Assembly: GCA_043825875.1 (NCBI GenBank)
Contig: JBDRRF010000108.1
Location: 1 to 15,400, forward strand
Direction: 5' to 3'
Source: Pseudomonadota bacterium
GTDB taxonomy: Bacteria; Desulfobacterota; Desulfobacteria; Desulfobacterales; RPRI01
DNA length: 15,400 nucleotides
Under the pieces are notes generated by a model, which was not told the origin of the DNA, made no database searches, and was given only the letters and a program-made list of their open reading frames with translations. Shown piece by piece: positions 1-15,400 of the stretch. A program made the translations under genes and the position numbers. The number at the start of each line of letters is the position of its first letter. Position 1 is the first letter of the stretch.

Positions 1-196
1 TTCGCTGTTGTACTCCTTCTGTTTGATCGAAAAAACCGTTTTGAATACCAGTTGTATCACGCAAAACAAAACTGGATTCAAAAAAACCATGAAAACTGGA
101 TTCCATTTCTGCTGCCGCATTCGAAGAGAAAATTCCTAACAGCACAAAAATTGCAAACACAAACAAACATGTTTCCTCCCATCTTCTCTTACCCAT
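1..196 (-). CDS. N-terminal part (runs off window) of a secreted/outer-membrane protein, possibly DUF1302-like
   Basis: ATG at 196 with SD AGGAGG (208-203). The frame is open to the window edge: MGKRRWEETCLFVFAIFVLLGIFSSNAAA|EMESSFHGFFESSFVLRDTTGIQNGFFDQTEGVQQR. This has a basic N-terminus, hydrophobic core and AxA cleavage motif of a Sec signal peptide. The family guess is from recalled similarity only. Confidence 0.75.
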   Translation of the reverse strand, partial: MGKRRWEETCLFVFAIFVLLGIFSSNAAAEMESSFHGFFESSFVLRDTTGIQNGFFDQTEGVQQR

Positions 197-425
197 GTCT
201 TTCCTCCTAAATTAAGTGTTTTAAAAAAAGATACAATTTCCACCTACTTTGTTTGTCTCACCTCCTTTTCTTATTAAACTCTAACATCAAATAAGGTATA
301 GCAAACTACATCCTGATCCATCCTAATTAGATAACAGCAAGAAATTGTTCGTGGTATAAAAGCCAGGGTCCAGTATTGAAGCAGGAATATATAAGAACGA
401 TTCTCTTTAGTGTTTATTTCAGCAT

Positions 426-733
426 CGAGCATACCGAATGTCAAGATAATTTTGTAGTTTTATGGTGATATGGCCCATAGATGTCTTTATATATGGCCAG
501 ATGTTGTTAGTAAATCGTCAAATGGTTAACATTAGCGCTCATCATCGATTCTTGACAAACATACGGTAACCATTTATAAACGAACATGCCAAATGTCAAG
601 ATATATTTTTAGCTTCTCGGTGATATGGCCCGTAATTATCTTTTTTTTGGGCCATATGCTGTTAGGAAATAGTCAACTGATTAATGTTGGCGCCCATCAT
701 CGGTTCTTGACAAACATGCAGTAACCATTTATA
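426..733. repeat. Imperfect tandem duplication with 155-bp period (426-578 and 581-733) in a divergent intergenic region
   Basis: Shared blocks exactly 155 bp apart: AATGTCAAGATA (437/592), GGTGATATGGCCC (464/619), TTCTTGACAAACAT (549/704), GTAACCATTTATA (566/721). Confidence 0.95.
552..580 (+). promoter_or_regulatory. Candidate sigma70 promoter toward the Lrp/AsnC gene; second copy at 707-735
   Basis: TTGACA-17 bp-TATAAA (552-580) and TTGACA-17 bp-TATACA (707-735). Minus-strand TTGACA boxes at 444-439 and 599-594 point toward the leftward gene. Confidence 0.45.
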
Positions 734-803
734 CAGAGACCATTTATGAAGTTGAAAGGTCGAGCTTAGAAACAATGTTTTCGTATATACCGGAAGTGTT
801 ATA

Positions 804-1745
804 ATGGTCGAAAAGAAAAAAACGTCAAAGTACCAGGTCGATGAGCTTGACCTGATGCTGATAAAAGAACTTGAAGCCAATTCCAGACAAAGCAATCGCC
901 AGATTGCCAAGAAGCTGGGTGTAACTTCAACAACAGTTCAGATAAGGCTTCAAAGGCTTCTTGATGAAAGAATGATCAAAATAATCCCTGTGCTGAATCC
1001 GGTAGCGATGAAATTCCAGACTAGGGCATTTTTTGGGTTGAATATCACTCCCGGCAGTTCCAATGCCGCGGTCGTATATTTGAAACCGTTAGCCTGTGTT
1101 CAGACTATCAATATCACAGCGGGTCACTTTGATATGACGTTATTTGCGGTGTTCCATGATATCGAAGAAATGCTTGCTTTTGTTGACGGCGAATTGAGCA
1201 AGGTTCCGGGCCTTGTTAGTATTGAAGAGATTATGGTCCTGAAGGTGGTGAAAAGAACATGGGCACATTATGATTGCAGCGCTGGCCTGGCTGGGCTGTC
1301 AGAACAACGTGACCTTGACGAATCGGAGACCAGATTGATAGATGCTCTGAAGTTGAATCCCAGAGAGACTATTATGAATTTGAGCAGAAAGCTTGGATTG
1401 AGCAGAAAGCTTATAAGCAGAAAGCTTACCGGACTTGTCAATGATAACATAATCGCTTTCACCATTCTGGTCATACCTGAAAGATCTGCTGTGCAGGCAC
1501 AAGTATTCTTGAAGGTTTACCCCGGAGAAATCAACAATGTGGCTACAGCGCTGGCTACAAATAAGAAAATTGCTCATGTGCTCATCGTTAGCGGTCAATT
1601 CAAGGTGTTCTTTGCTGCCGTTTTTCGCAATATGGAAGAATGCATTTTTTTCATCAATGGAGATATGCGTAATATTCCAGGCATCAATAGCCACGAGACG
1701 GCTGTCTCTGTAGCATCGCTAAAGCAGTCTGTATTGCTTGGATAG
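804..1745 (+). CDS. Lrp/AsnC family transcriptional regulator with two tandem HTH + RAM modules
   Basis: HTH1 'VDELDLMLIKELEANSRQSNRQIAKKLGVTSTTVQIRLQRL' and RAM1 'TAGHFDM'. HTH2 'LDESETRLIDALKLNPRETIMNLSRKLGLS' and RAM2 'VSGQFKVF...IPGINSHET'. At 313 aa it is about twice a normal Lrp. Confidence 0.92.
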   Translation: MVEKKKTSKYQVDELDLMLIKELEANSRQSNRQIAKKLGVTSTTVQIRLQRLLDERMIKIIPVLNPVAMKFQTRAFFGLNITPGSSNAAVVYLKPLACVQTINITAGHFDMTLFAVFHDIEEMLAFVDGELSKVPGLVSIEEIMVLKVVKRTWAHYDCSAGLAGLSEQRDLDESETRLIDALKLNPRETIMNLSRKLGLSRKLISRKLTGLVNDNIIAFTILVIPERSAVQAQVFLKVYPGEINNVATALATNKKIAHVLIVSGQFKVFFAAVFRNMEECIFFINGDMRNIPGINSHETAVSVASLKQSVLLG

Positions 1746-2170
1746 TAACGAAATTGCTTAGGGTAATTTGGCATGCATGTTTTTCTCTTACCATGCCTTT
1801 CTGTTTAAATCCGCACGAAACTCCGATTTGGGCCCGTGGCAAGCCCTCTGGGCTATAGGTTTTGGGGAAATCCTCCCACCCTTCCAATGATACTCAATGG
1901 CAAACCTCATGGCAGGAGGGCTTTTCGCTACTTAATCAGGGAATCCTTGGTAAATACATTTCAACTGTGCGGTACATGGCAGAAACAAGAATGTCTTTGT
2001 ATTGATTACTGTTGTTCTTATCGATTACTTTAGGTAAATTCATAGACTGCCCAATACCGGCAATTAAAACAGAACAAATAACGAACTTATTGACAATCCA
2101 AAATACTTTACTATTCCCACTCGTTTTATGTTTTTTCTTTCCAACTTCATAGTTGTTATAGTTATATTCT

Positions 2171-2270
2171 CTCATCGGCATGAATCAGCTCTTTTGCTAT
2201 TTCATGCCTTGCCTGACATTGCAGTATAAATTGTTACTCTCTTTCAAAAGAGCTGATTTATGCCGATGAG
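2171..2270. repeat. 100-bp element with 26-bp inverted arms (25/26 match) around a 48-bp spacer
   Basis: CTCATCGGCATGAATCAGCTCTTTTG (2171-2196) and CAAAAGAGCTGATTTATGCCGATGAG (2245-2270). Confidence 0.95.
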
Positions 2271-2500
2271 CACCTCTATTAAATTAAAAGAACGACGGCT
2301 TTTTTAAAAACTCAAACATAAAAAACTGGTATTTTGATGAATTCATTGCTATTGTTAAAAAAATTATGTTATGTAGTATAAATTACTTCCGGTTATTTAA
2401 TATTTATAAATACAATATATTAGTGTAAGAATGCTTGAGGCATTGGTTTCTTCATTTATTGTATTTTTTTATTTGTATTCTTATAGGTGTTATACTATTC

Positions 2501-5065
2501 ATGCTTGTTTTACGAGGTACAAAGAGTTCCTATGATAGTCCCAAACTGTATAAATCGCTTGGATCTCTATTAAAAGACTATAGAAAATGGCGTGGAGTAA
2601 GCCAGGAATTTATTTCAGACCTGATAAGAGTAAGCGTTAGACAATTACGCAATTGGGAATCAAACCGACGCCGTGTTCGCTTCGAAAATCTCCATGATCT
2701 TTCAGAGGTTACAGGTATTCCCATGCAGGTATGTGTAGCTCTTAACGCAGACCAACCCATGTGGTATACCTTGCAAAAAAGATGGTTTGCGTCCTCGCCG
2801 GTATTAGCGGATTCATTGCCAAATACACTATTCAAATACTCCGGAAAATTGGACGATGCCTTTACTTTATCCAAAGAAAAAATTAGAACTGACAAGCAGT
2901 ATAATATGGTACTTTCGTGCCATAATGATATTTACCGTGCGCTAAAACCGCTTAGAAGAGATGTTGTCGAAAAGGCATCTTCAATCATTCCTGATTTGAA
3001 CTTTATTGTTTTGGATTCCTGGGGCCATTATGTGGGACATAGCATCTGGCTACCCTTAAAAAAAGATGCATTTGATCAGCTAAAGAAGCAAAAATCATTT
3101 GAGGGCTGGCTTACACCCGAAATCATCAGCGATGTTGTTGCTCTTAAGGAAGGCGCATTATTATTGTTTTCTATATATATTTCCAGCATAAATGTAGCGT
3201 ACTATAACCAAATAAACGCCACGCATTACCTCACCGATATTGATAAAAAAGAAAGATACATAGTTGGTATGTATACGGCCATGAAAGAAACTCATGAACT
3301 GCTAAGTACCTTAGGCTTTAAATTATCAAAAAATGATAAACAAGCAATATCGGAAGATTACAATATACTTTATGAAACCGGATTAGATATTGTTATGAGA
3401 CCCGGCGGGCCATGGCATTGGTTGCTTGAAAAACATAAACCAAAGGAGGAAAATGATCTGACCGAAAGGTCCGAACCAAAAGAGATGTCAGTTGTTGATC
3501 CGGAAACATTAAGCAAAGATATAGAAATGTTTGAAAAATATTCATTGGATAAAATATCCGGCATCAAAACGTCAACACCGGATAATGATTCCGGCGCCCT
3601 GATCGTTGACAGATGCAAACCATTTGATCATCAACCGGAGCATAGGAATTCATTTGAAGACTTTACCGTTCAGGCTAAGCGGCAAAGCGGGTTAGACAAA
3701 CTTGTATATCCAAATAAGAATTTCTCATTATATGGGAAAAAGGAAAAAGCAAATATTGCCTTAAACGGAACATACCGCAGAAAAGTTGATGACCTTACTT
3801 TAACCAGAGAAATTATTAGAACTGACAAGCAGTATAATATGGTGCTTTCGTGTCATAATGACATTTACCATACACTTAAACCACTTAGAAGAGATGTTGT
3901 CGAAAAGGCATCTGCAATTATTCCTGATTTAAATTTTATGGTTTTGGATTCCCGAGGCTATTATGTGGGGCATAGCATCTGGCTACCCTTAAAAAAAGGC
4001 GCATTTGAACAGCTAAAGAAGCAAAAATCATTTGAGGGCTGGCTTACGCCAGAAAGCATCAGTGATATTGTTGCTCTCAAGGAAGGCGCATTATTATTTT
4101 TTTCTTCATATATTTCCAGCATAAACATAGCGTATTATAAAACCATACAGGTAGCACATTACCTTGCCGATATTGATAAAAAAGAAAGATACATAGTTGG
4201 CATGTATTCAGCAATGAAAGAAACTCATGAATTGTTGAGTACCATGGGATTTAAGATATTAAAAAATGATAAACAAGCAACATCAAAAAATCACAATATA
4301 CTGTATGAAGCAGGATTAGATATTGTGATGAGATCCGGCGGGCCATGGCATTGGTTGCTTGAAAACCATAAACTGAAGGAAGAAAATGATCTAATCAAAA
4401 GGTCCGAACCGAAAGAGACGTTAGTTGTTGATTCGGAAATATTAAGCAAAGATCATGATATGTTAGAAAAATATTCATCGGAATCATTATCCGGTATCAA
4501 AACGTCAATACCGGATAATGATTCCGGCGCCCTGATCGTTGACAGGCATAAATCATTTGATCCCCACCCGGAGCATAGAAATTCATTTGAAGACTTTACC
4601 GTTCAGGCAAATAAGCAAAGCGAGTTAGACAAACTTGTATGTCCAAATACAAATTGCTCATTATATGGTAACAAAGGAAAAGCAAATATCGTTTTAAACG
4701 GAACATACCACAGAAAAGGTAAAAAACCAGGCCGCCGCTTCCTTTGTAAAGTATGTAAAAAATCTTTTTGCAACAGAACCGGAACTATATTTTATAATTT
4801 ATGTTCATCTGAAGAGAATGTCTTAAAAGCTCTTAAGCTTTTGGCCGATGGCAACCAACTTTCATATACAAAAAAAGTCCTAGGAGTAAAATTTCGCACA
4901 ATCCGCCGCTGGCTAAAAATTTTTCATGAGCACAATGCGGAACTAAATACATTGCTTAGAAATAAGCTAAACATGTCGGAAGCTGAAATCAATGCTTTAA
5001 TGAGTAATCTTGAGAATAATTTTCAATTAAACCCACATAATTCAGATAATTCAGAGTTAGAATAG
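2501..5065 (+). CDS. Chimeric putative regulator: XRE-family HTH + two tandem GNAT-like units + C-terminal IS1/InsA-like zinc ribbon-HTH
   Basis: XRE HTH 'LGSLLKDYRKWRGVSQEFISDLIRVSVRQLRNWESNRRR'. Duplicated 311-aa unit with GNAT-like hallmarks ('FIVLDSWGHYVGHSIWLPL', 'YTAMKETHELLSTLGFK'). C-terminal 'CPNTNC...RFLCKVCKKSF...TGTIFY...LGVKFRTIRRWL'. Start is uncertain (ATG 2501 preferred over TTG 2435). Confidence 0.85.
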   Translation: MLVLRGTKSSYDSPKLYKSLGSLLKDYRKWRGVSQEFISDLIRVSVRQLRNWESNRRRVRFENLHDLSEVTGIPMQVCVALNADQPMWYTLQKRWFASSPVLADSLPNTLFKYSGKLDDAFTLSKEKIRTDKQYNMVLSCHNDIYRALKPLRRDVVEKASSIIPDLNFIVLDSWGHYVGHSIWLPLKKDAFDQLKKQKSFEGWLTPEIISDVVALKEGALLLFSIYISSINVAYYNQINATHYLTDIDKKERYIVGMYTAMKETHELLSTLGFKLSKNDKQAISEDYNILYETGLDIVMRPGGPWHWLLEKHKPKEENDLTERSEPKEMSVVDPETLSKDIEMFEKYSLDKISGIKTSTPDNDSGALIVDRCKPFDHQPEHRNSFEDFTVQAKRQSGLDKLVYPNKNFSLYGKKEKANIALNGTYRRKVDDLTLTREIIRTDKQYNMVLSCHNDIYHTLKPLRRDVVEKASAIIPDLNFMVLDSRGYYVGHSIWLPLKKGAFEQLKKQKSFEGWLTPESISDIVALKEGALLFFSSYISSINIAYYKTIQVAHYLADIDKKERYIVGMYSAMKETHELLSTMGFKILKNDKQATSKNHNILYEAGLDIVMRSGGPWHWLLENHKLKEENDLIKRSEPKETLVVDSEILSKDHDMLEKYSSESLSGIKTSIPDNDSGALIVDRHKSFDPHPEHRNSFEDFTVQANKQSELDKLVCPNTNCSLYGNKGKANIVLNGTYHRKGKKPGRRFLCKVCKKSFCNRTGTIFYNLCSSEENVLKALKLLADGNQLSYTKKVLGVKFRTIRRWLKIFHEHNAELNTLLRNKLNMSEAEINALMSNLENNFQLNPHNSDNSELE
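2853..4718 (+). repeat. In-frame intragenic tandem duplication with 933-bp period (about 2853-3785 and 3786-4718)
   Basis: ATTAGAACTGACAAGCAGTATAATATGGT occurs at 2882 and 3815. The unit ends AACGGAACATACC(G/A)CAGAAAAG finish at 3785 and 4718. The constant offset of 933 bp equals 311 codons. Confidence 0.97.
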
Positions 5066-5280
5066 TTTTCGTTGCCAAAGTATTCGATGAATACCCTTTT
5101 GTAAAATCTTATGAGCTTACACTAGAACATACCGATTCCTTAAGTGATTTTATGCAATAACTTACAAAAGAACTTGTCTATAGCGCTTGCCACAAATGCG
5201 TTCCGTCCGGGTATGGGGAATACATTCAAATTTCAATAAAATTTGCCACAGGACTTCAATGAAGTACCAAAAAGGGTTAT

Positions 5281-5315
5281 TTCCAAATCTCAAATACTAT
5301 ATTTGTGATTTGGAA
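5281..5315. repeat. AT-rich hairpin with 16-bp arms (one mismatch)
   Basis: TTCCAAATCTCAAATA-cta-TATTTGTGATTTGGAA. Confidence 0.8.
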
Positions 5316-5393
5316 TTTGACTATTGGTATTTTTTTGATATATAAATAAATATATTACCATAGAGGAATAACAGGTTATAAACCCAATTGTTC

Positions 5394-5536
5394 GAGCCAC
5401 TTTCAAAACGTTTCAGTTTGATCAAGCTCAAGGCGGGAGAAAATTTCAACCACAGGAATACATTTAGTATTTCGAGGATTGAAATTTGAGCCCAACGCTT
5501 AAGATCGGCCAAAATGGGGCGTTTTGAAACTGGCTC
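5394..5536. mobile_element. 143-bp MITE/REP-like nested palindromic element
   Basis: Terminal inverted repeats GAGCCACTTTCAAAACG / CGTTTTGAAACTGGCTC (16/17 match). Inner arms AAATTTCAA...TTGAAATTT and AATAC...GTATT. No convincing coding capacity. Confidence 0.75.
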
Positions 5537-5692
5537 ATTCGCATAAGACTTCTTACCCCGAAAAAGTATTAAATGCAGGTTACTCAAAAGTCTCTCTATT
5601 TTAAAAAGCCTTTATCGGAAATTGCCGGTCTTGCTTGACCTGAAAGAAGTTTTTGTATAAATGTTTTCATTTTGCGAAAAAAGGGAAATATT

Positions 5693-7024
5693 ATGGCAGA
5701 ACATGTAGAATTGATATACGGAGGGGAAAAATACACTCTGCCCGTAGTTACGGGTACAGAGGGTGAAAAAGCAGTTGATATTTCCATACTTCGTGAAAAA
5801 ACAGGCTTAATAACTCTTGATACCGGTTTTGCCAATACCGGTAGCTGTATAAGTTCAATTACTTTTATGGATGGGGAAAAGGGTATTCTCCGTTACAGGG
5901 GAATCCCCGTTGAACAGCTTGCTGAAAATTCTTTATTTATTGAAACAACATATCTTTTGGTAAACGGAGTGCTGCCTACAAGAAAGCAACTAACCGATTT
6001 TTCCATTCTTTTAAACGATAATTCTCTTATTCATGAAGACATGCAATCGTTTTTTCAGAGTTTTCCAAGGGCTTCTCATCCTATGGGAATTCTTTCTTCA
6101 ATGGTTACTGCTCTTAGAAGTTTTTATCCCGAACTTAAAGTCGAATCTGTAGAACAAATAAATTTAACTGTTACACGCCTGCTTTCCAAGATTCGAACAC
6201 TTGCCGCCATGTCTTACAAGATATCCAGAGGGCATAAAGTTGTTTATCCGCGCCCGGATCTGTCCTATTGTGCTAATTTTCTTAACATGATGTTCGACAG
6301 CCCGGTCAGGCCCTATCAGATCGATGATGAGATGGTCAAGGCTTTAAATGTTTTCTGGATTCTCCATGCAGATCACGAGCAAAACTGCTCAAGTTCTACA
6401 GTCAGGATGGTCGGAAGCGGGAGAGTAAATCTTTACGCCGCTATTTCCGCCGGAATTGCAGCCCTTTGGGGTCCTTTGCATGGAGGGGCAAATCAGGCTG
6501 TTGTAGAAATGCTTACAAGAATAAAAAGAAAAGATGGTGGTAATGTTAAAAAAGCTGTTGAAAGGGCTAAAGATAAAAAAAATCCTTTCAGACTAATGGG
6601 TTTTGGGCACAGGGTTTATAAAACCTATGACCCGAGAGCAAAGATTATGAAAAATACTTGTGATATTATTCTTGAAAAACTTCAGACAAGCGACCCTTTG
6701 CTTGATATAGCAAAAGCGCTGGAAGAGGTCGCATTGAAAGATACTTATTTTCTGGAACATAACCTCTATCCTAACATAGACTTTTACAGCGGTATTTTAT
6801 TAAGAGCTCTTGGCATACCTACCAATATGTTTACAGTCATGTTTGCAATAGGAAGACTTCCAGGGTGGATAGCTCAGTGGAAGGAAAGTGCGGATGATCC
6901 CAAATGGAAATTAAGTCGTCCGCGGCAAATATATGACGGTCCGCCGTTGACGGAATATATACCCATAGACGAAAGGAAAAAACATCATATGGATTACGGG
7001 CATAAAAAACACATAAATAGTTAG
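5693..7024 (+). CDS. gltA: Citrate (Si)-synthase
   Basis: Motifs 'DGEKGILRYRGIP', 'LHADHEQNCSSSTVR', 'GPLHGGANQAV', 'MGFGHRVYK', 'YPNIDFYSG' and 'RPRQIY'. ATG 5693, preceded by AAGGGA, is preferred over TTG 5672. Confidence 0.97.
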   Translation: MAEHVELIYGGEKYTLPVVTGTEGEKAVDISILREKTGLITLDTGFANTGSCISSITFMDGEKGILRYRGIPVEQLAENSLFIETTYLLVNGVLPTRKQLTDFSILLNDNSLIHEDMQSFFQSFPRASHPMGILSSMVTALRSFYPELKVESVEQINLTVTRLLSKIRTLAAMSYKISRGHKVVYPRPDLSYCANFLNMMFDSPVRPYQIDDEMVKALNVFWILHADHEQNCSSSTVRMVGSGRVNLYAAISAGIAALWGPLHGGANQAVVEMLTRIKRKDGGNVKKAVERAKDKKNPFRLMGFGHRVYKTYDPRAKIMKNTCDIILEKLQTSDPLLDIAKALEEVALKDTYFLEHNLYPNIDFYSGILLRALGIPTNMFTVMFAIGRLPGWIAQWKESADDPKWKLSRPRQIYDGPPLTEYIPIDERKKHHMDYGHKKHINS

Positions 7025-7074
7025 GATACAACAAGACAAGACCTTAAAAATCCGCGTGGCACAATAGCAAATAT

Positions 7075-7113
7075 TTAGAGCATAAGCGCTTATGGATAGC
7101 GCTTATGCTCTAA
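7075..7113. terminator. Perfect 16-bp-arm hairpin between convergent genes; probable bidirectional terminator or small repeat element
   Basis: TTAGAGCATAAGCGCT-tatggat-AGCGCTTATGCTCTAA. There is no clear U-tract on either side. Confidence 0.55.
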
Positions 7114-7187
7114 TAGTAAAATGAAACGATTTGTAAAACTTGTAATCGACCAACAGTAGGCATCTGCAACAGTATAGAAGCCTTATA

Positions 7188-7493
7188 TTATTTAAATTGC
7201 CCGAGAGGTCTTTTAAAGGTATATCCTGCAGGTTCAACTACTAATTTATCCCAGGCTGCTGCAATATTTCCACCAAGAGCAGAGAAGGGGGAAGAAAGAA
7301 TAAATACAGCAGAACCTGTAGCAAGACTGACAATTCCAACCGGTCTCACCGCAACAAAGTCGGCAATCATAGCAATACCTTCATGTGTTTCCGTATTGGT
7401 GTAGTCTATTGCAAGCACCGTGGAACCGGATGATATAATTAGCAGTGCAATAATAGATAAAATCATAACAGGTTTTTTAAATGGCGTGTGCAT
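7188..7493 (-). CDS. Small exported/membrane hypothetical protein
   Basis: SD AAAGGAGA upstream of the ATG. A signal-peptide-like N-terminus is followed by the hydrophobic segment 'MIADFVAVRPVGIVSLATGSAVFILSSPFSALGGN...LVVEPAGYTFKRPLGQF', a pattern I recall from small conserved proteobacterial proteins. Confidence 0.85.
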   Translation of the reverse strand: MHTPFKKPVMILSIIALLIISSGSTVLAIDYTNTETHEGIAMIADFVAVRPVGIVSLATGSAVFILSSPFSALGGNIAAAWDKLVVEPAGYTFKRPLGQFK

Positions 7494-7695
7494 GAATTTC
7501 TCCTTTCCATTTTACACGTTTAAAAAATAAATTTTAAAAAAAACAGAGAAAGTACAGAGTATAAATAAAACAACCGCATAAAAAATCTATATCTCCATTT
7601 AAACAGGTTGCTTTTTTATCCAAATATTGTCTTACTGTAAATATAGCATACAATTTTAAAAATATTAACAATAATTATATATTTTGCAAACAAAA

Positions 7696-10146
7696 ATGTC
7701 AAACAACACTAAATATATTGATGTTGCGGTTGATTTGCCTGTATATAGCATATTCACTTACATTGTTCCCGAAGGCATACATGATGTTTTTTTACCGGGG
7801 AAAAGAGTGACTGTTCCCTTCGGGCAAAGAAACATAACAGGGTATGTGCTTTCCGAAAGTAAACATACAAGTGAATATGATGATAAAGAAATAAAACCTA
7901 TAAGAGATGTTATAGATAAAACATCTCTTTTCCCGCCTTCTATGGTACCTTTTTTAAAATGGATTGCAGATTATTATATTTATCCTATCGGTGCAGTAAT
8001 AAAAACAGCTCTTCCAGGTGGTCTTAATTCTTATGAAATTATAAAATATTCAATTACTGCTGCAGGAAAAGAAGTGCTGGATGCAAACCGGATTTTTGCC
8101 CTTGATAAAAGAGTTTTAAGCTTACTTGAAACATGCCCCTTTAGTATCAAAGGACTTTGCGGGAAACTGAATGAAAATATTTCAGCTTCACTTCTCTTTT
8201 CAATGGAAAAACGAGGCTGGATAGTAAGAGAAAAAGAAATAAAACCCGGCAAGACAAAAGCCAGGTTGGAATCATACGTATGTCTTTCCGGCGGCGGGTT
8301 GCCTGACAGCAAGTTATCATTATCACGGAAAAAGGTAATAGATTGCTTAAAAACTTATGGCGAACTGTCTCTTAAACGTTTAAAAGAATATGTTCCCAAT
8401 GCAGCAAGAGTTGTTAAAGCATTAGAAAGTGATGGATATCTTATTTTATCCAAAAAACCGGTTTATCGTGATCCTTTCGGAGAAGAAATAAGTCCGGATA
8501 TTGCTCCTGTTCCAACCCATGAACAGGAAAGTGTTATTTCCAATGTAATAAACTTTCTTGGCAAAGGCTTTTCTCCTTTTCTTCTTTCCGGAGTTACGGG
8601 AAGCGGCAAAACCGAAGTTTACATGAAACTTGCCTCCGCAGCCATTGATAAGGGGTATTCCGTTCTTGTTCTAGTGCCCGAGATAGCGCTTATATCTCAG
8701 ATAGAAAAAAGGTTCAGGGCACGTTTTGGTGAATGTGTGGCAATTTTGCACAGCGGTCTTTCTTCCGGAGAAAAATATGATCAATGGAGCAGAATAACAG
8801 ATAAAAAGACTTTGATTGCAATCGGTGCAAGATCTGCTGTTTTTGCTCCTTTAACAAACATCGGATTAATAGTAGTCGATGAAGAACATGATTCATCGTA
8901 TAAGCAGGAAGGAGGACTTAGATATAATGCACGAGATCTTGCAGTTGTCAGGGCAAAACTTGAAAACTGTATAGTACTGCTCGGTTCTGCAACTCCTTCG
9001 GTTCAGTCGTATCAAAACGTTTTATCAAATAAATTTTCAGGACTTTCTTTAACAAAGCGTATAGAAAACAGGACGCTGCCTGAAGTTAATGTTGTGGATT
9101 TAAAAAATAACCGTAACAGCCGGGGAATGAGACGGTATTTTTCACAAGAGCTTATAGATGGTATTAAAAGCACTTTGTCCCGAAAAGAACAGGTTCTGCT
9201 GTTTCTAAACCGCAGAGGTTTTGCAGGTTTTCCTGTATGTTCTGCTTGCGGAGAAGCTGTCAAATGTAAAAACTGCGATATTTCGCTTACACTTCATAAA
9301 TCAGCAAATGCATACAAATGTCATTATTGCGGTTATACAAAAGCTGCAAATTCCAAGTGCGCCAAATGCGGATCTGCTGCAATTAAACTTCTTGGGCTTG
9401 GCACGGAAAAAATTGAAGAAGCGGTTAAAACTCTTTTCCCGCAGGCCAGAGTTGCAAGGATGGATTCGGATACAACAATTCGTAAAGGCTCCGTATTAAA
9501 AATATTAAAAGATTTGAGCGAGCATAACATTGATATACTTATCGGAACCCAAATGGTTGCAAAAGGGCATGATTATCCAGGCATTACACTTGTAGGCATA
9601 ATCTGTGCGGATCTATCACTTTCTTTCCCCGATTTCAGGGCGTGCGAACGCACCTTTGGGCTTTTAGCCCAGGTCTCAGGCAGAGCAGGACGTGGAGATT
9701 CAAAAGGAAGCGTTATACTCCAGACATATAATCCGGATCATTTCACTATTCTGTCAGCAAAAAAACAGGATTTTATATCTTTTTATGAAAAAGAGATAGT
9801 TTTTCGAAAGGATTTGAATTACCCTCCATTTTCAAAAATGATTATGATCAGGCTTTCAGGCAAAGATAAGAAAAGAACCCAAGAATGTGCAAAAACTTTG
9901 GGGAAACATTGCAATGAATTGAAAAACGGGAACAAATCATTTGAAAAATCTGTAATTGTGCTTGGCCCTGTTGAAGCTTCCGTTGCCAAGGTTGCTGACC
10001 GTTACAGGTGGCAAATTCTTTTAAAAGGCTATAGTTTTAATCCCCTCCATCGGTTTGCAAAAATAATTGTCCTTGAAACAGCCAGTAAAATTTGCGGGAA
10101 AGATGTTAGTGTGGTTATTGATGTTGACCCGTATTTTATGATGTAA
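7696..10146 (+). CDS. priA: Primosomal protein N' (replication restart helicase)
   Basis: 'GKRVTVPFG', Walker A 'GVTGSGKTEVY', 'DEEHDSSYKQ', 'LGSATPS', four CxxC pairs (CSAC, CKNC, CHYC, CAKC), 'QVSGRAGR' and C-terminal 'IDVDP'. Confidence 0.98.
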   Translation: MSNNTKYIDVAVDLPVYSIFTYIVPEGIHDVFLPGKRVTVPFGQRNITGYVLSESKHTSEYDDKEIKPIRDVIDKTSLFPPSMVPFLKWIADYYIYPIGAVIKTALPGGLNSYEIIKYSITAAGKEVLDANRIFALDKRVLSLLETCPFSIKGLCGKLNENISASLLFSMEKRGWIVREKEIKPGKTKARLESYVCLSGGGLPDSKLSLSRKKVIDCLKTYGELSLKRLKEYVPNAARVVKALESDGYLILSKKPVYRDPFGEEISPDIAPVPTHEQESVISNVINFLGKGFSPFLLSGVTGSGKTEVYMKLASAAIDKGYSVLVLVPEIALISQIEKRFRARFGECVAILHSGLSSGEKYDQWSRITDKKTLIAIGARSAVFAPLTNIGLIVVDEEHDSSYKQEGGLRYNARDLAVVRAKLENCIVLLGSATPSVQSYQNVLSNKFSGLSLTKRIENRTLPEVNVVDLKNNRNSRGMRRYFSQELIDGIKSTLSRKEQVLLFLNRRGFAGFPVCSACGEAVKCKNCDISLTLHKSANAYKCHYCGYTKAANSKCAKCGSAAIKLLGLGTEKIEEAVKTLFPQARVARMDSDTTIRKGSVLKILKDLSEHNIDILIGTQMVAKGHDYPGITLVGIICADLSLSFPDFRACERTFGLLAQVSGRAGRGDSKGSVILQTYNPDHFTILSAKKQDFISFYEKEIVFRKDLNYPPFSKMIMIRLSGKDKKRTQECAKTLGKHCNELKNGNKSFEKSVIVLGPVEASVAKVADRYRWQILLKGYSFNPLHRFAKIIVLETASKICGKDVSVVIDVDPYFMM

Positions 10147-10202: not shown

Positions 10203-11459
10203 ATGGCAGAAGATAAAAAAGCAGTCAGAAAAACTATTAATGCTGCTTTTGAAATGAATAAAATAATGTCGCAGTATTTTTATGAAATGGATAATGCGGC
10301 AAAAACCGGAGAAAAAAAAATTGCATGGTGTTCCAGTGTTGGGCCGGCCGAAATATTAAGGGGCATGGGTTTTCTTGTATATTTTCCCGAAAATCACGGC
10401 GCAATGCTTGGCGCAACCCGTATGTCAACGGAAATGATTCCTTATGCAAATGCCCGCGGGTATTCTCCTGATATATGCTCGTATCTTACTTCTGACATAG
10501 GAGCATATATAAGAGGTTTAACACCGCTTAAAAAAGCATATGAAGGAATAGAATGCGTACCCAAACCCGATGTTCTTGTATGCAATACGAACCAGTGCAG
10601 AGATGTTCAGGACTGGTTTTTCTGGTATTCAAAAGGGTTTAATGTTCCTTTGCTTGTAGTAAACACACACAGGGGCATTAAAGATGTGAATAAATCACAT
10701 ATTGAATCTGTGGCAAGGCAATTAGAAGCTCTTATCAAACCTTTGGAAAAAATATCCGGCAAAAAATATGACGCCGACAACATGAAAAAAGCTGTAGCTC
10801 TTTCCCGTGAATGTTCCGATTTGTGGAAAAAAGTTTTAGATACAGCAGCAGCCGTTCCTTCTCCCATTACTTTTTTCGACGGCACAATTCATATGGCGCC
10901 AGCAGTAGTACTTAGGGGAACGCAACAGGCAGTCGATTACTATAAACTTCTTTACGCTGAATTAAGTCAAAGGATACAAGACAGGCAGGGTTCTCTTGAT
11001 AACGAGAAGTTCAGAATATACTGGGAAGGCATGCCCATCTGGGGCAGGCTGCGCGACCACTCCGAAATGTTTACAAGCCTTAATACAAATGTGCTTGCTT
11101 CCACATATTGCAACAGCTGGATATTCACAGATTTTGACCCCGAAGATCCTTTTACCAGTATGGCGAAAGCTTACACCAGGTTGTTTATTACAAGATCGGA
11201 TGAGGCTAAACAGGAATATATCAAGGAGATGATGGATTTCTTTAAAATCGATGGTATTATTTACCATGATGCAAAAACCTGCCCGCACAATTCCAACTGC
11301 CGCTATGGAATGCCTCAAAGGCTTGAAAAAGAAACAAAGATTCCATATCTTATAATAAACGGCGATTTAAATGATCTAAGGTGTATATCAGACGATCAGA
11401 CAACAACAAATATCGAAGCTTTTATCGAACAACTTGAGGAAAATAACCAGCATGCTTGA
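10203..11459 (+). CDS. 2-hydroxyacyl-CoA dehydratase / class I benzoyl-CoA reductase family subunit (HGD-D, Fe-S)
   Basis: 'YFPENHGA', 'GYSPDICSY', 'PKPDVLVCNTNQC', 'RIYWEGMPIW', 'IDGIIYHDAKTC', 'IPYLIINGDLND...TTNIEAFIEQL'. Confidence 0.9.
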   Translation: MAEDKKAVRKTINAAFEMNKIMSQYFYEMDNAAKTGEKKIAWCSSVGPAEILRGMGFLVYFPENHGAMLGATRMSTEMIPYANARGYSPDICSYLTSDIGAYIRGLTPLKKAYEGIECVPKPDVLVCNTNQCRDVQDWFFWYSKGFNVPLLVVNTHRGIKDVNKSHIESVARQLEALIKPLEKISGKKYDADNMKKAVALSRECSDLWKKVLDTAAAVPSPITFFDGTIHMAPAVVLRGTQQAVDYYKLLYAELSQRIQDRQGSLDNEKFRIYWEGMPIWGRLRDHSEMFTSLNTNVLASTYCNSWIFTDFDPEDPFTSMAKAYTRLFITRSDEAKQEYIKEMMDFFKIDGIIYHDAKTCPHNSNCRYGMPQRLEKETKIPYLIINGDLNDLRCISDDQTTTNIEAFIEQLEENNQHA

Positions 11460-12822
11460 CAGTTTGTTTAAACCAAAGTCAGTTGCCATAATCGGTGCAT
11501 CAGTAAAAGAACTTTCCATTGGAAACAGAATATTAAAAAACCTTGTAGATTTTGGTTATACAGGTTCAATATATCCGATAAATCCACAGGCAGATGAGAT
11601 ACAAGGCATAAGGGCATATAAAAGCATTCTGGATGTCCCCGGCGAAATAGATCTTGCTCACATTATTATTCCAAACAGGTTTGTCCCGCAGGCAGTAGAA
11701 GATTGCGGTAAAAAAGGCGTTAAATCCATTATTATAAATTCCGCAGGCTTTAAAGAAACAGGCCCTGAAGGCGAAGCTATTGAGAAGGCTTTCCTTTTAT
11801 GTGCAAAAAAATACGGCATCAGGATCTTCGGTCCCAATTGCCAGGGCATAATAAATACTGATCCGAACGTAAGGGCTTATTGTAATTTTGCATTCACAAA
11901 ACCTGAAGCCGGCTATATTTCAATAGCTGCACAAAGCGGTGGTGTGGGAGAGTTGATACACCAGGGTTTTTATGAAATGGGAATCGGAACCCACCTATAT
12001 GCATCTAATGGAAATGCCTGCGATATATCCATTACCGAAATATTAAAATACTTCGGAGATGATGCAGGAACCCGCGTTATAGTACTTTATATTGAAAGTA
12101 TTTCAGATCACAAAGCATTTGTTGAAGCTGCAAGAAAAATAGCAGAAAAAAAGCCTATTCTTGCTATGAAAGCAGGCCGTACCGGTGAAGGTGAAAAAGC
12201 AGTATATTCCCATACCGGCAGTTCGGCGGAAAAAGATATAATCACAGATATTATTTTAGAAAAAGCCGGCATCCTTGTATTTAAAAATGAAGGCGAATTA
12301 TGCCGGGCAGCAGCAGCTTTTGCTTTGCAGCCGCTTCCGAAAGGAAACCGTGTGGGAATTATTACAAACACCGGAGGTCCTGCAATTATTGCAACAGATG
12401 TGCTTATAGATTCAGGGCTTGATATACCCATGCTTTCGGAACAAGTAAGAGATTATCTGACAGAACAACTTCATCCTGAAGCTTGTGTCAATAACCCTGT
12501 TGATCTGCTTGCAACAGGATTAAGTGAACACTTTCGCATTGCAATAGAGGCAATGATAAATGAAGATCATATAGACAGTATTTTTATAAATTTTGTGACG
12601 CCCTTTTTTGTGGATACGGAAAGCATAGCTAAAGAAATTGCCAATGCCGGCAGGCAGAAGAAAAAACCGATAATATGCAATCTCATGACAGATAAAAGGC
12701 TTTGGACGGAAACCATCAAAATATTAAAAGCTGGGGGTATCCCCTGTTACAGTTTTCCTTCTGATGCCGCAGGAGCCCTTGCTGCGCTTGTGCGTTATTC
12801 CGGAGTACAGCTTGAAAGGTAA
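11452..12822 (+). CDS. Acyl-CoA synthetase (NDP-forming) alpha-type subunit (CoA-binding + ligase domains, no ATP-grasp)
   Basis: 'LFKPKSVAIIGAS', 'YPINP', 'GPNCQG', 'QSGG', phosphohistidine loop 'SHTGS', 'TNTGGP' and 'NPVDL'. ATG 11452 overlaps the end of the upstream gene (ATGCTTGA). Confidence 0.92.
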   Translation: MLDSLFKPKSVAIIGASVKELSIGNRILKNLVDFGYTGSIYPINPQADEIQGIRAYKSILDVPGEIDLAHIIIPNRFVPQAVEDCGKKGVKSIIINSAGFKETGPEGEAIEKAFLLCAKKYGIRIFGPNCQGIINTDPNVRAYCNFAFTKPEAGYISIAAQSGGVGELIHQGFYEMGIGTHLYASNGNACDISITEILKYFGDDAGTRVIVLYIESISDHKAFVEAARKIAEKKPILAMKAGRTGEGEKAVYSHTGSSAEKDIITDIILEKAGILVFKNEGELCRAAAAFALQPLPKGNRVGIITNTGGPAIIATDVLIDSGLDIPMLSEQVRDYLTEQLHPEACVNNPVDLLATGLSEHFRIAIEAMINEDHIDSIFINFVTPFFVDTESIAKEIANAGRQKKKPIICNLMTDKRLWTETIKILKAGGIPCYSFPSDAAGALAALVRYSGVQLER

Positions 12823-14017: not shown

Positions 14018-15400
14018 CGGTTCATCCCCACGGGTGTGGGGAACATTACACCTCAAACTGCGTATAACCTGCCATCGACGGTTCATCCCCACGGGTGTGG
14101 GGAACATGTGACCAATTGGAATGGAGAGATGAAAAATATAGGTTCATCCCCACGGGTGTGGGGAACATTCGTCATAATTACTCCACAAATAAGCCGGTAA
14201 CGGTTCATCCCCACGGGTGTGGGGAACATCATAACATTTTCGTGTTTAAATTTATTTTTCCGGTTCATCCCCACGGGTGTGGGGAACATAGAAGGTACAA
14301 CATGAAAACTGCTAAAACGATCGGTTCATCCCCACGGGTGTGGGGAACATATCCAGATCATCTCGAATATCTTTTATACGATCGGTTCATCCCCACGGGT
14401 GTGGGGAACATGCCGCTTTCGCTGAAGCTTCTGTATCGAGGAGCGGTTCATCCCCACGGGTGTGGGGAACATGAACGCAAAAAAGCCCCTGGAATGTCCA
14501 AGGGCGGTTCATCCCCACGGGTGTGGGGAACATTCCATAAACTCGTTAAAGGCATCCTCCGAAGCCGGTTCATCCCCACGGGTGTGGGGAACATACAGCC
14601 TCCCTCCATAAGATTGCTTTAGTAATCGGTTCATCCCCACGGGTGTGGGGAACATCCGCAAAGCCAACCTCTTTCTGTCCCAACAAGCGGTTCATCCCCA
14701 CGGGTGTGGGGAACATTTGATTATCAGGTACATTTGCCCTGATATTAGCGGTTCATCCCCACGGGTGTGGGGAACATGCGTGAGCATAGGCACAATCTTT
14801 AAAGAAAAACGGTTCATCCCCACGGGTGTGGGGAACATCTTTCAGCAACAATTTGTTTTCGTTTGTAACGCGGTTCATCCCCACGGGTGTGGGGAACATT
14901 CCTGAGAATGGCCTGATTTTTATTCATGAACCGGTTCATCCCCACGGGTGTGGGGAACATGTGCCGGTTCAGTTATTTATATTGGCTGATTCCGGTTCAT
15001 CCCCACGGGTGTGGGGAACATTTGTAGCGTTTGCGTTCGCTGTTTGTGGCTATCGGTTCATCCCCACGGGTGTGGGGAACATAAAGGATATCACGGTTGA
15101 AGTTCGTCGTAAAGCGGTTCATCCCCACGGGTGTGGGGAACATATCAAGACTATAAACAAATGTTGTCTTATATTCGGTTCATCCCCACGGGTGTGGGGA
15201 ACATAAAAATTAATTACGGCCCAAGAAGGGCCCGGCCGGTTCATCCCCACGGGTGTGGGGAACATTCAAGATGATACTTGTCAAAAAGAGGAAAGAACGG
15301 TTCATCCCCACGGGTGTGGGGAACATGAACATGCGAGAATATTAAAAGAAAGGGACGACGGTTCATCCCCACGGGTGTGGGGAACATTCGATGTATTCAG
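14018..15400 (-). CRISPR. CRISPR array with type I-E-like 29-bp repeat; 23 repeats and 22 complete spacers in view, continuing past the right edge
   Basis: Repeat CGGTTCATCCCCACGGGTGTGGGGAACAT starts at 14018, 14079, 14140, 14201, 14261 ... 15359, with a 61-bp period (once 60). Its reverse complement ATGTTCCCCACACCCGTGGGGATGAACCG matches the layout of the E. coli I-E repeat (GTGTTCCCC...GGGGATAAACCG), which implies minus-strand transcription. Confidence 0.99.

Follow-up and report, generated by a model that had tools for sequence, protein, structure and literature searches.

What kind of protein results when one bacterial open reading frame begins with the helix-turn-helix (HTH) of a host regulator and ends with the DNA-binding part of a transposase? 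The window (the whole stretch of DNA analysed, 15,400 nucleotides) carries such a frame, and an earlier note, made from its sequence, had described a DNA-binding motif at each end with two copies of a central domain between them, and had read the whole as an acyl-CoA- or ligand-sensing regulator that had recruited a transposase fragment. The layout was borne out, with an XRE-HTH at one end and an InsA module at the other, and the C-terminal motifs quoted in that note match the sequence in position (CPNTNC from 4640, CKVC at 4745, RTIRRWL at 4895-4915 and LNMSEAEINALMSNL at 4967-5011). The window gene is neither an IS1 element nor a standard acetyltransferase. An alternative TTG start is possible at 2435, 5' of the start at 2501, and the frame is organized as follows:

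2501 to 5065, plus strand: open frame of 854 amino acids (aa), in the order XRE-HTH, GNAT-fold, linker, GNAT-fold, linker, InsA
2570 to 2728, plus strand: XRE (Cro/C1) HTH, aa 24-76 (PF01381, E 4.5e-10)
2852 to 3400, plus strand: first GNAT-fold domain, which lacks the QxxGxG/A pyrophosphate loop (AF2 model, fold comparison and motif test)
About 3788 to 4333, plus strand: GNAT-fold copy 2, lying together with linker 2 in the second unit of a duplication
4640 to 4783, plus strand: InsA-type Cys4 Zn ribbon (CPNTNC...CKVC), the four Cys invariant in 57 of 57 fused family members
4784 to 4939, plus strand: InsA tri-helical HTH (domain search, fold model and family alignment)
4940 to 5062, plus strand: InsA C-terminal helices, with a degenerate ELDxLW-FVKK position and without an A-run slippery site

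The N-terminal HTH scores 39.8 bits with HTH_3 against a cut-off of 23 and belongs to the XRE/Cro-C1 type. At the other end, the C-terminal part matches the IS1 transposase model NF033558 (E 2.7e-7, under the family cut-off), and its nearest relatives are 167-aa proteins (about 50% identity). These relatives are encoded by intact IS1-family elements, 1182-1203 bp long, that end in 30-bp terminal repeats, have an A-run slippery site following W-S-F-V and contain a DDE-type InsB frame at -1, which identifies the 167-aa proteins as InsA. The nearest real donors are elements L095-L099; the window module is 47% identical to InsA residues 8-143 of an intact IS1-family element, and identity to the donor reaches 67% in paralogs. 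The IS1/InsA origin suggested in the earlier note is thus supported by both the model match and the InsA identity. A fold search with the InsA model returned generic HTH matches alone (best Z 6.6), which is not informative on the InsA fold since no solved InsA was among the matches.

How much of the element was taken? The earlier note saw a truncated transposase fragment; instead, the captured unit is the complete un-frameshifted InsA repressor together with its tail past the slippery site and the inner IS left end. InsA of Escherichia coli IS1 acts as a repressor binding both IRL and IRR (parts of PMC12428005 and PMC12903888). The 0-frame InsA tail beyond the slippery site is kept in the family and in L134 follows InsA to near its native end. 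The A-run slippery site itself is absent from the window copy and from 41 of 51 members, a loose pattern being matched in 10 of the 51. The expectation that no DDE core follows the module held: InsB gave no tblastn match at E≤1 in the window's own genome or in 67 fetched family loci, and in none of the 51 members extending to the FVKK motif does the -1 frame exceed 53 codons. Paired IS ends were likewise not found, G000 having no donor-end 17-mer within two mismatches, and the fused genes showed no InsB, no right end, no tip of the left end, no -10 box and no InsA start. As the earlier note had it, LNMSEAEINALMSNL occupies the position of the catalytic motif (ELDALW in the donor IS) without its D and W, but this loss is peculiar to the window ortholog clade, and in the fused members at large D is kept in 69% and W in 84%.

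The module is maintained by selection. Among reciprocal-best orthologs with more than 65% identity, dN/dS was 0.11-0.19 for Zn ribbon and HTH, 0.10-0.14 for XRE, 0.12-0.28 for GNAT and 0.43-0.71 for the linker (two duplicated genes were left out of this set and analysed apart). For the window copy against its G011 and G016 orthologs, the values were 0.11-0.15 for the Zn ribbon and 0.23-0.46 for the HTH. Domestication, as proposed before, therefore has purifying selection on its side, with InsB and paired ends not found; none of the observations that would have overturned it was made, namely a missing InsA match, a missing GNAT fold, homologues without the module or with it decaying neutrally, or an InsB frame or IS1 ends at this locus.

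The fused modules nest among IS InsAs in the phylogenetic tree. In the full InsA tree the fused set needs three changes and two odd database proteins fall inside it, while in a thinned tree (these two proteins and four long branches dropped, stand-alone rows cut to 30) the fused modules form one side of a branch (SH 84); on these sequences, a single origin of the fusion is neither shown nor rejected. Two stand-alone InsA-like proteins with a native N-terminus, P0119 and P0117, were also seen; P0119 is without the KK residues of the slippery site and clusters with one of the fused members, and the two were possibly domesticated separately.

The central domain had no match by sequence in PDB or Pfam, there was no Pfam GNAT match among 63 members, and an Atlas search gave unnamed clusters plus one cluster with 12% Acetyltransf_1. 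The fold search alone identified it: the AF2 model (pLDDT 87.5) matches GNAT (Foldseek E 4e-5; best structural comparison VIA, Z 12.8, rmsd 3.0 over 146 aligned residues), in keeping with the GNAT-like unit first suspected. The best folds are N-terminal acetyltransferases and the GNAT-like domains of CurA, SxtA and GphF, and H141, D172 and H180 are conserved across the family, which would suit active acyltransferases (or decarboxylases) whose DNA-binding domains merely autoregulate or localise the enzyme. We consider this quite improbable, given that the missing Pfam match is accompanied by a gene context that is a regulator's and by loss of the GNAT motif A pyrophosphate loop. The consensus of this loop is Q/R-x-x-G-x-G/A; it occurs in 0 of 63 family members and 0 of 59 stand-alone XRE-GNAT sequences, and the beta4-alpha3 loop in our model has two residues only. 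Because the motif is absent in 63/63 and 59/59, the domain is probably a sensor rather than an acetyl transferase. Its absence from all 63 members also disfavours the acyl-CoA sensing suggested at first.

The doubling of this domain has its own history, for which these features are needed:

2855 to 3785, plus strand: first unit of an intragenic tandem duplication of 933 nt (87% DNA identity to 3788-4718)
3788 to 4718, plus strand: second unit, with GNAT-fold copy 2 and linker 2
3707 to 3787, plus strand: dead Zn-ribbon fragment produced by the duplication, with neither Cys remaining here or in G008

The two central copies are thus a direct repeat, each unit holding GNAT, linker and the first ~27 Zn-ribbon codons, and the ribbon remnant of copy 1 reads YPNKNF against CPNTNC in the intact ribbon. 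Since the duplication is shared with the G008 ortholog, and one contig of run X2 from another study spans window positions 2297-5014, it is not an assembly artefact. It also predates the split from G008, because dS between the copies (0.33-0.37) exceeds that between the window and G008 orthologs (0.12). Both GNAT copies are kept under purifying selection (dN/dS 0.24-0.36 overall, 0.24-0.34 for copy 1 against copy 2). What had been taken for the design of the protein is nevertheless a private duplication, present in 2 of 72 members; the same XRE-GNAT-InsA architecture in its usual single form was recovered in 56 of the 72, the remaining 14 of these members with XRE and central domain being without InsA.

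With 14 members lacking it and at least three separate losses forced on the family tree, InsA is dispensable. Within one genus the family occurs in five of 17 genomes, a single genome giving as many as 36 search matches: the window genome has 12 related loci (including the window ORF), and four of the other 16 genomes have 18, 18, 36 and 2 matches. Among 24 genomes of other genera there was one weak match, to the XRE part only; an order-wide search of 400 genomes matched one further genome outside the genus, and none of 400 other genomes across the phylum matched at E≤1e-20, these searches being samples that include some incomplete genomes. Source labels of family proteins include Desulfobacterium. 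Across paralogs the XRE recognition helix is near-uniform and the InsA helix is diversified.

InsA is one of three transposase heads seen on this scaffold. Four orthologs without InsA, one of them (C69) in the window genome, have an IS630 DNA-binding head at the N-terminus (NF033545, E 1e-14 to 2e-17); they form a clade nested among InsA-bearing members, and the head, with a dN/dS of about 0.25 where measurable, is under purifying selection. In the metagenomic member P0159 the head is of IS481 type and shares 58% identity with an IS481-type transposase; as sequence this capture is real, and being one sequence on a 1.7-kb contig it does not imply fixation beyond itself. At L092 (5000-5629), InsA is replaced by about 210 C-terminal residues without a Pfam match.

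What the family might regulate is indicated by its genomic context. The upstream gene is divergent in 59 of the 62 members for which it was called, compared with 718/3630 (20%) genome-wide. DUF1329 or DUF1302 faces 22 of the 62, and most other facing genes encode flavin, molybdenum, tungsten or short-chain oxidoreductases and similar enzymes; the facing genes are mostly uptake or catabolic. DUF1329/DUF1302 genes are needed by Pseudomonas putida for growth on fatty esters (part of 10.1101/2020.07.04.188060). At the window locus the upstream region contains:

1959 to 2170, minus strand: 5' remnant of a divergent DUF1329 gene that is intact at the G008 ortholog locus
2171 to 2270, no strand assigned: hairpin of about 100 nt with 25-26-bp arms, in the divergent promoter region

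A DUF1302 gene starts divergently at 196, beyond an Lrp-type gene. The latter (804-1745) encodes a double Lrp/AsnC regulator with two HTHs and two ligand domains, conserved in G008 and G016, and between it and the DUF1302 gene lie two tandem 155-bp copies (426-733; 80% identical) with TTGACA promoter-like ends. In the hairpin type, 13 of 32 predicted pairs show compensatory changes and the loop has a conserved motif; the element lies about 40 bp ahead of DUF1329/DUF1302 genes in either orientation, and 16 of 72 family members have one in the 900 bp upstream of them; Rfam gave no real match over window 1-7700. Its loop resembles an IS end, but at the positions where the loop is least conserved, and this resemblance was set aside without formal testing.

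Elsewhere in the window, 5394-5536 is a 143-bp MITE-like repeat with 16-bp inverted ends and 288 genome matches; 4-bp target duplications flank 111 of 168 full-length copies, no autonomous partner was found, and the G008 ortholog has had the end of its ORF replaced by one copy. At 10203-12822, a 2-hydroxyacyl-CoA dehydratase subunit is followed by a 462-aa acyl-CoA synthetase (NDP-forming) alpha-type protein, in which domain search found no ATP-grasp domain. A CRISPR array (14019-15400; 29-nt repeat, 61-nt spacing), presumably type I-E from its repeat, runs off the contig end.

Gibbs/motif sampling of 27 upstream regions revealed no shared operator, the -35 box alone being found. TTGACA is present upstream of 50/71 family genes versus 96/502, and as it has no IS context we discarded it as an IS-end-like operator and read it as an ordinary -35 box. 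Likewise, a weight matrix built from 12 IS ends showed no enrichment over upstream regions (p 0.2-0.75). Inside the genes the matrix did find sites, which in the window correspond to:

3596 to 3613, plus strand: IS1 left-end remnant (inner part, degenerate), first copy, reading A-L-I-V-D, weak alone and assigned by homology
4529 to 4546, plus strand: the same, copy 2, at a 933-nt offset

The match is significant in the linker of 28 of 58 InsA-bearing members, on one strand and in one frame, versus 0 of 14 others, a contrast that is partly trivial as the 14 mostly lack the linker too, and kin are not independent; in 18 of the 58 the site also beats synonymous recoding. A second test avoided circularity by choosing sites by amino acid alone (linker V-D): Val is GTT in 81 of 82 such sites, compared with 46% elsewhere in linkers and 51% genome-wide, and in 15/15 after thinning to ortholog groups. 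The site consensus equals the inner segment of the IS end, oriented as in the element and lying just ahead of InsA; in 34 of 58 members at least two sites are present, mostly with a spacing of 18 or 21 nt. Inheritance alone does not suffice to explain this conservation, because InsA fourfold codons match the IS in only 41% (Val codons in 105/283, 37%). The inner IS left end thus survives in the linker under codon-level constraint. A stand-alone InsA made from an internal promoter was considered and rejected: the IS -10 box and start codon are gone from the fused genes, a -10 box follows 4 of 82 sites, as in background, and no SD+ATG was seen. In linker 2 a perfect 19-bp inverted repeat (4479-4526) lies just ahead of the remnant, and its linker 1 counterpart is imperfect.

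Starting from what is observed (the fusion, the loss of InsB, purifying selection, the divergent neighbour and the conservation of the inner IS end at the DNA level), we propose, with a probability of roughly 0.58, that the protein is a ligand-responsive local repressor whose InsA part binds the IS-end remnant in its own gene and represses it, possibly looping to the XRE-bound promoter. An XRE-HTH/GNAT-fold scaffold would have been fused in frame to the left end and whole InsA of an IS1-family element; the XRE head would bind the divergent promoter region, repressing an uptake or catabolic operon, and the GNAT-fold domain would sense a small hydrophobic substrate without acetyl transfer. Binding of InsA within its own gene, comparable to that of native InsA at IRL, would result in negative autoregulation and would hold each paralog at its own locus by a tether or loop; such tethering could allow the coexistence of dozens of paralogs whose XRE helices are nearly the same. 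A bolder version, which we put forward tentatively as possible, is that the XRE-GNAT scaffold repeatedly captures IS1 InsA, IS630 and IS481 heads, that the IS1 protein and its operator were taken together with the operator kept in frame, and that self-tethering loops to the divergent promoter solve cross-talk and let one genus reach about 30 copies serving different catabolic operons.

The InsA recognition helix bears on whether the site is still InsA's own. Its residues have diversified (K 60%, F 51%, D 42% and H 46%, against 91-100% in IS copies), and site quality does not covary with them (Spearman 0.09, p 0.51; group means -0.16), as might be expected if InsA in a local regulator had been repurposed for new promoter sites or as a protein-contact or dimer module, the motif being held by the XRE head or an mRNA-level signal; a precedent is the Tc1 HTH captured by Caenorhabditis F-box genes and proposed for protein contacts (part of PMC12062965). 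Such repurposing seems to us unlikely, in that what is conserved corresponds to the inner IS end, oriented as in the element and placed just before InsA, with frequent doubling at a spacing of 18 or 21 nt, and basic Zn-ribbon and HTH core residues are retained. The drift of contact residues from the IS consensus in most paralogs, and the tie of each gene to a different metabolic operon, also make it very improbable that the fusions are host silencers binding the ends of incoming IS1, IS630 and IS481 in trans. Supplying InsA in trans lowers IS1 transposition in E. coli by about 1000-fold (part of PMC12428005), and donor InsB was not found in G000, G008, G011 and G016, though multi-copy IS are often missing from assemblies, which makes their absence weak evidence.

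Within the preferred reading, autorepression through the IS-end remnant, the window copy, itself divergent, may be a relaxed member, given its doubled sensor, weak site (not significant alone, score -0.2) and partly lost target gene. Two RNA runs gave no coverage of the gene, which says nothing either way about its expression. Outright decay after loss of the DUF1329 target, in a family that otherwise works as described, would accord with the DUF1329 remnant, the degenerate tail motif, the weak linker site, and dN/dS values against G008 of 0.66 for the Zn ribbon (seven nonsynonymous, three synonymous changes) and 0.96 for linker 2. We find it hard to credit, however, as both species keep an intact ORF, the same comparison shows constraint on XRE (0.23), on the two GNATs (0.32-0.36) and on the HTH (0.11), the GNAT copies are constrained against each other too, and DUF1302 still starts divergently.

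In the open-access literature we found no description of this family or of a domesticated IS1 InsA fusion. Here donor element, captured protein, putative operator and dozens of diverged paralogs are all known together, which makes it testable how bacteria gain transcription factors and how a large paralog set avoids cross-talk. Among uncultured relatives of sulfate reducers, the family is also a marker of operons for uptake and catabolism (DUF1302/DUF1329, flavin and Mo/W oxidoreductases). Compared with known systems, the family shares with IS1 InsA (E. coli IS1, NF033558) the Zn ribbon plus HTH, the un-frameshifted tail and the left-end DNA ahead, and differs in that the module is C-terminal on a host protein and inherited at syntenic loci. 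The central domain shares its fold with GNAT enzymes (Ard1/Nat acetyltransferases, CurA GNATL, SxtA and GphF; Z 11-12.8, rmsd 3.0-3.5), but at 6-12% identity, without the pyrophosphate loop and with DNA-binding domains fused. The same scaffold, with motif A likewise missing, is seen in stand-alone XRE-HTH/GNAT-fold proteins of about 290 aa (P0164-P0256), themselves uncharacterised, which come from other phyla (labels including Nitrospirota and Cyclobacteriaceae), fall outside the family in the tree and had no transposase module in those inspected.

Transposase DNA-binding domains serving as host regulators are well documented in eukaryotes, the SETMAR and KRAB fusions being host-transposase fusions of this kind. 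The name host-transposase fusion genes (HTF) has been given to eukaryotic cases (PMC8700633), and the further examples in the parts of PMC8700633 and PMC2910039 drawn on here are eukaryotic. The present family has the hallmarks of such fusions, i.e. an in-frame host domain, a lost catalytic core, orthology across species and purifying selection. Like them it joins a transposase DNA-binding domain to a host domain and shows genus-level expansion and repeated capture; unlike them it is bacterial, involves no splicing, keeps donor end sequence in the coding region, and took heads from three IS families onto one scaffold. It is a bacterial counterpart of the eukaryotic host-transposase fusions, and a rare bacterial case of parts of jumping genes being reused by the host.
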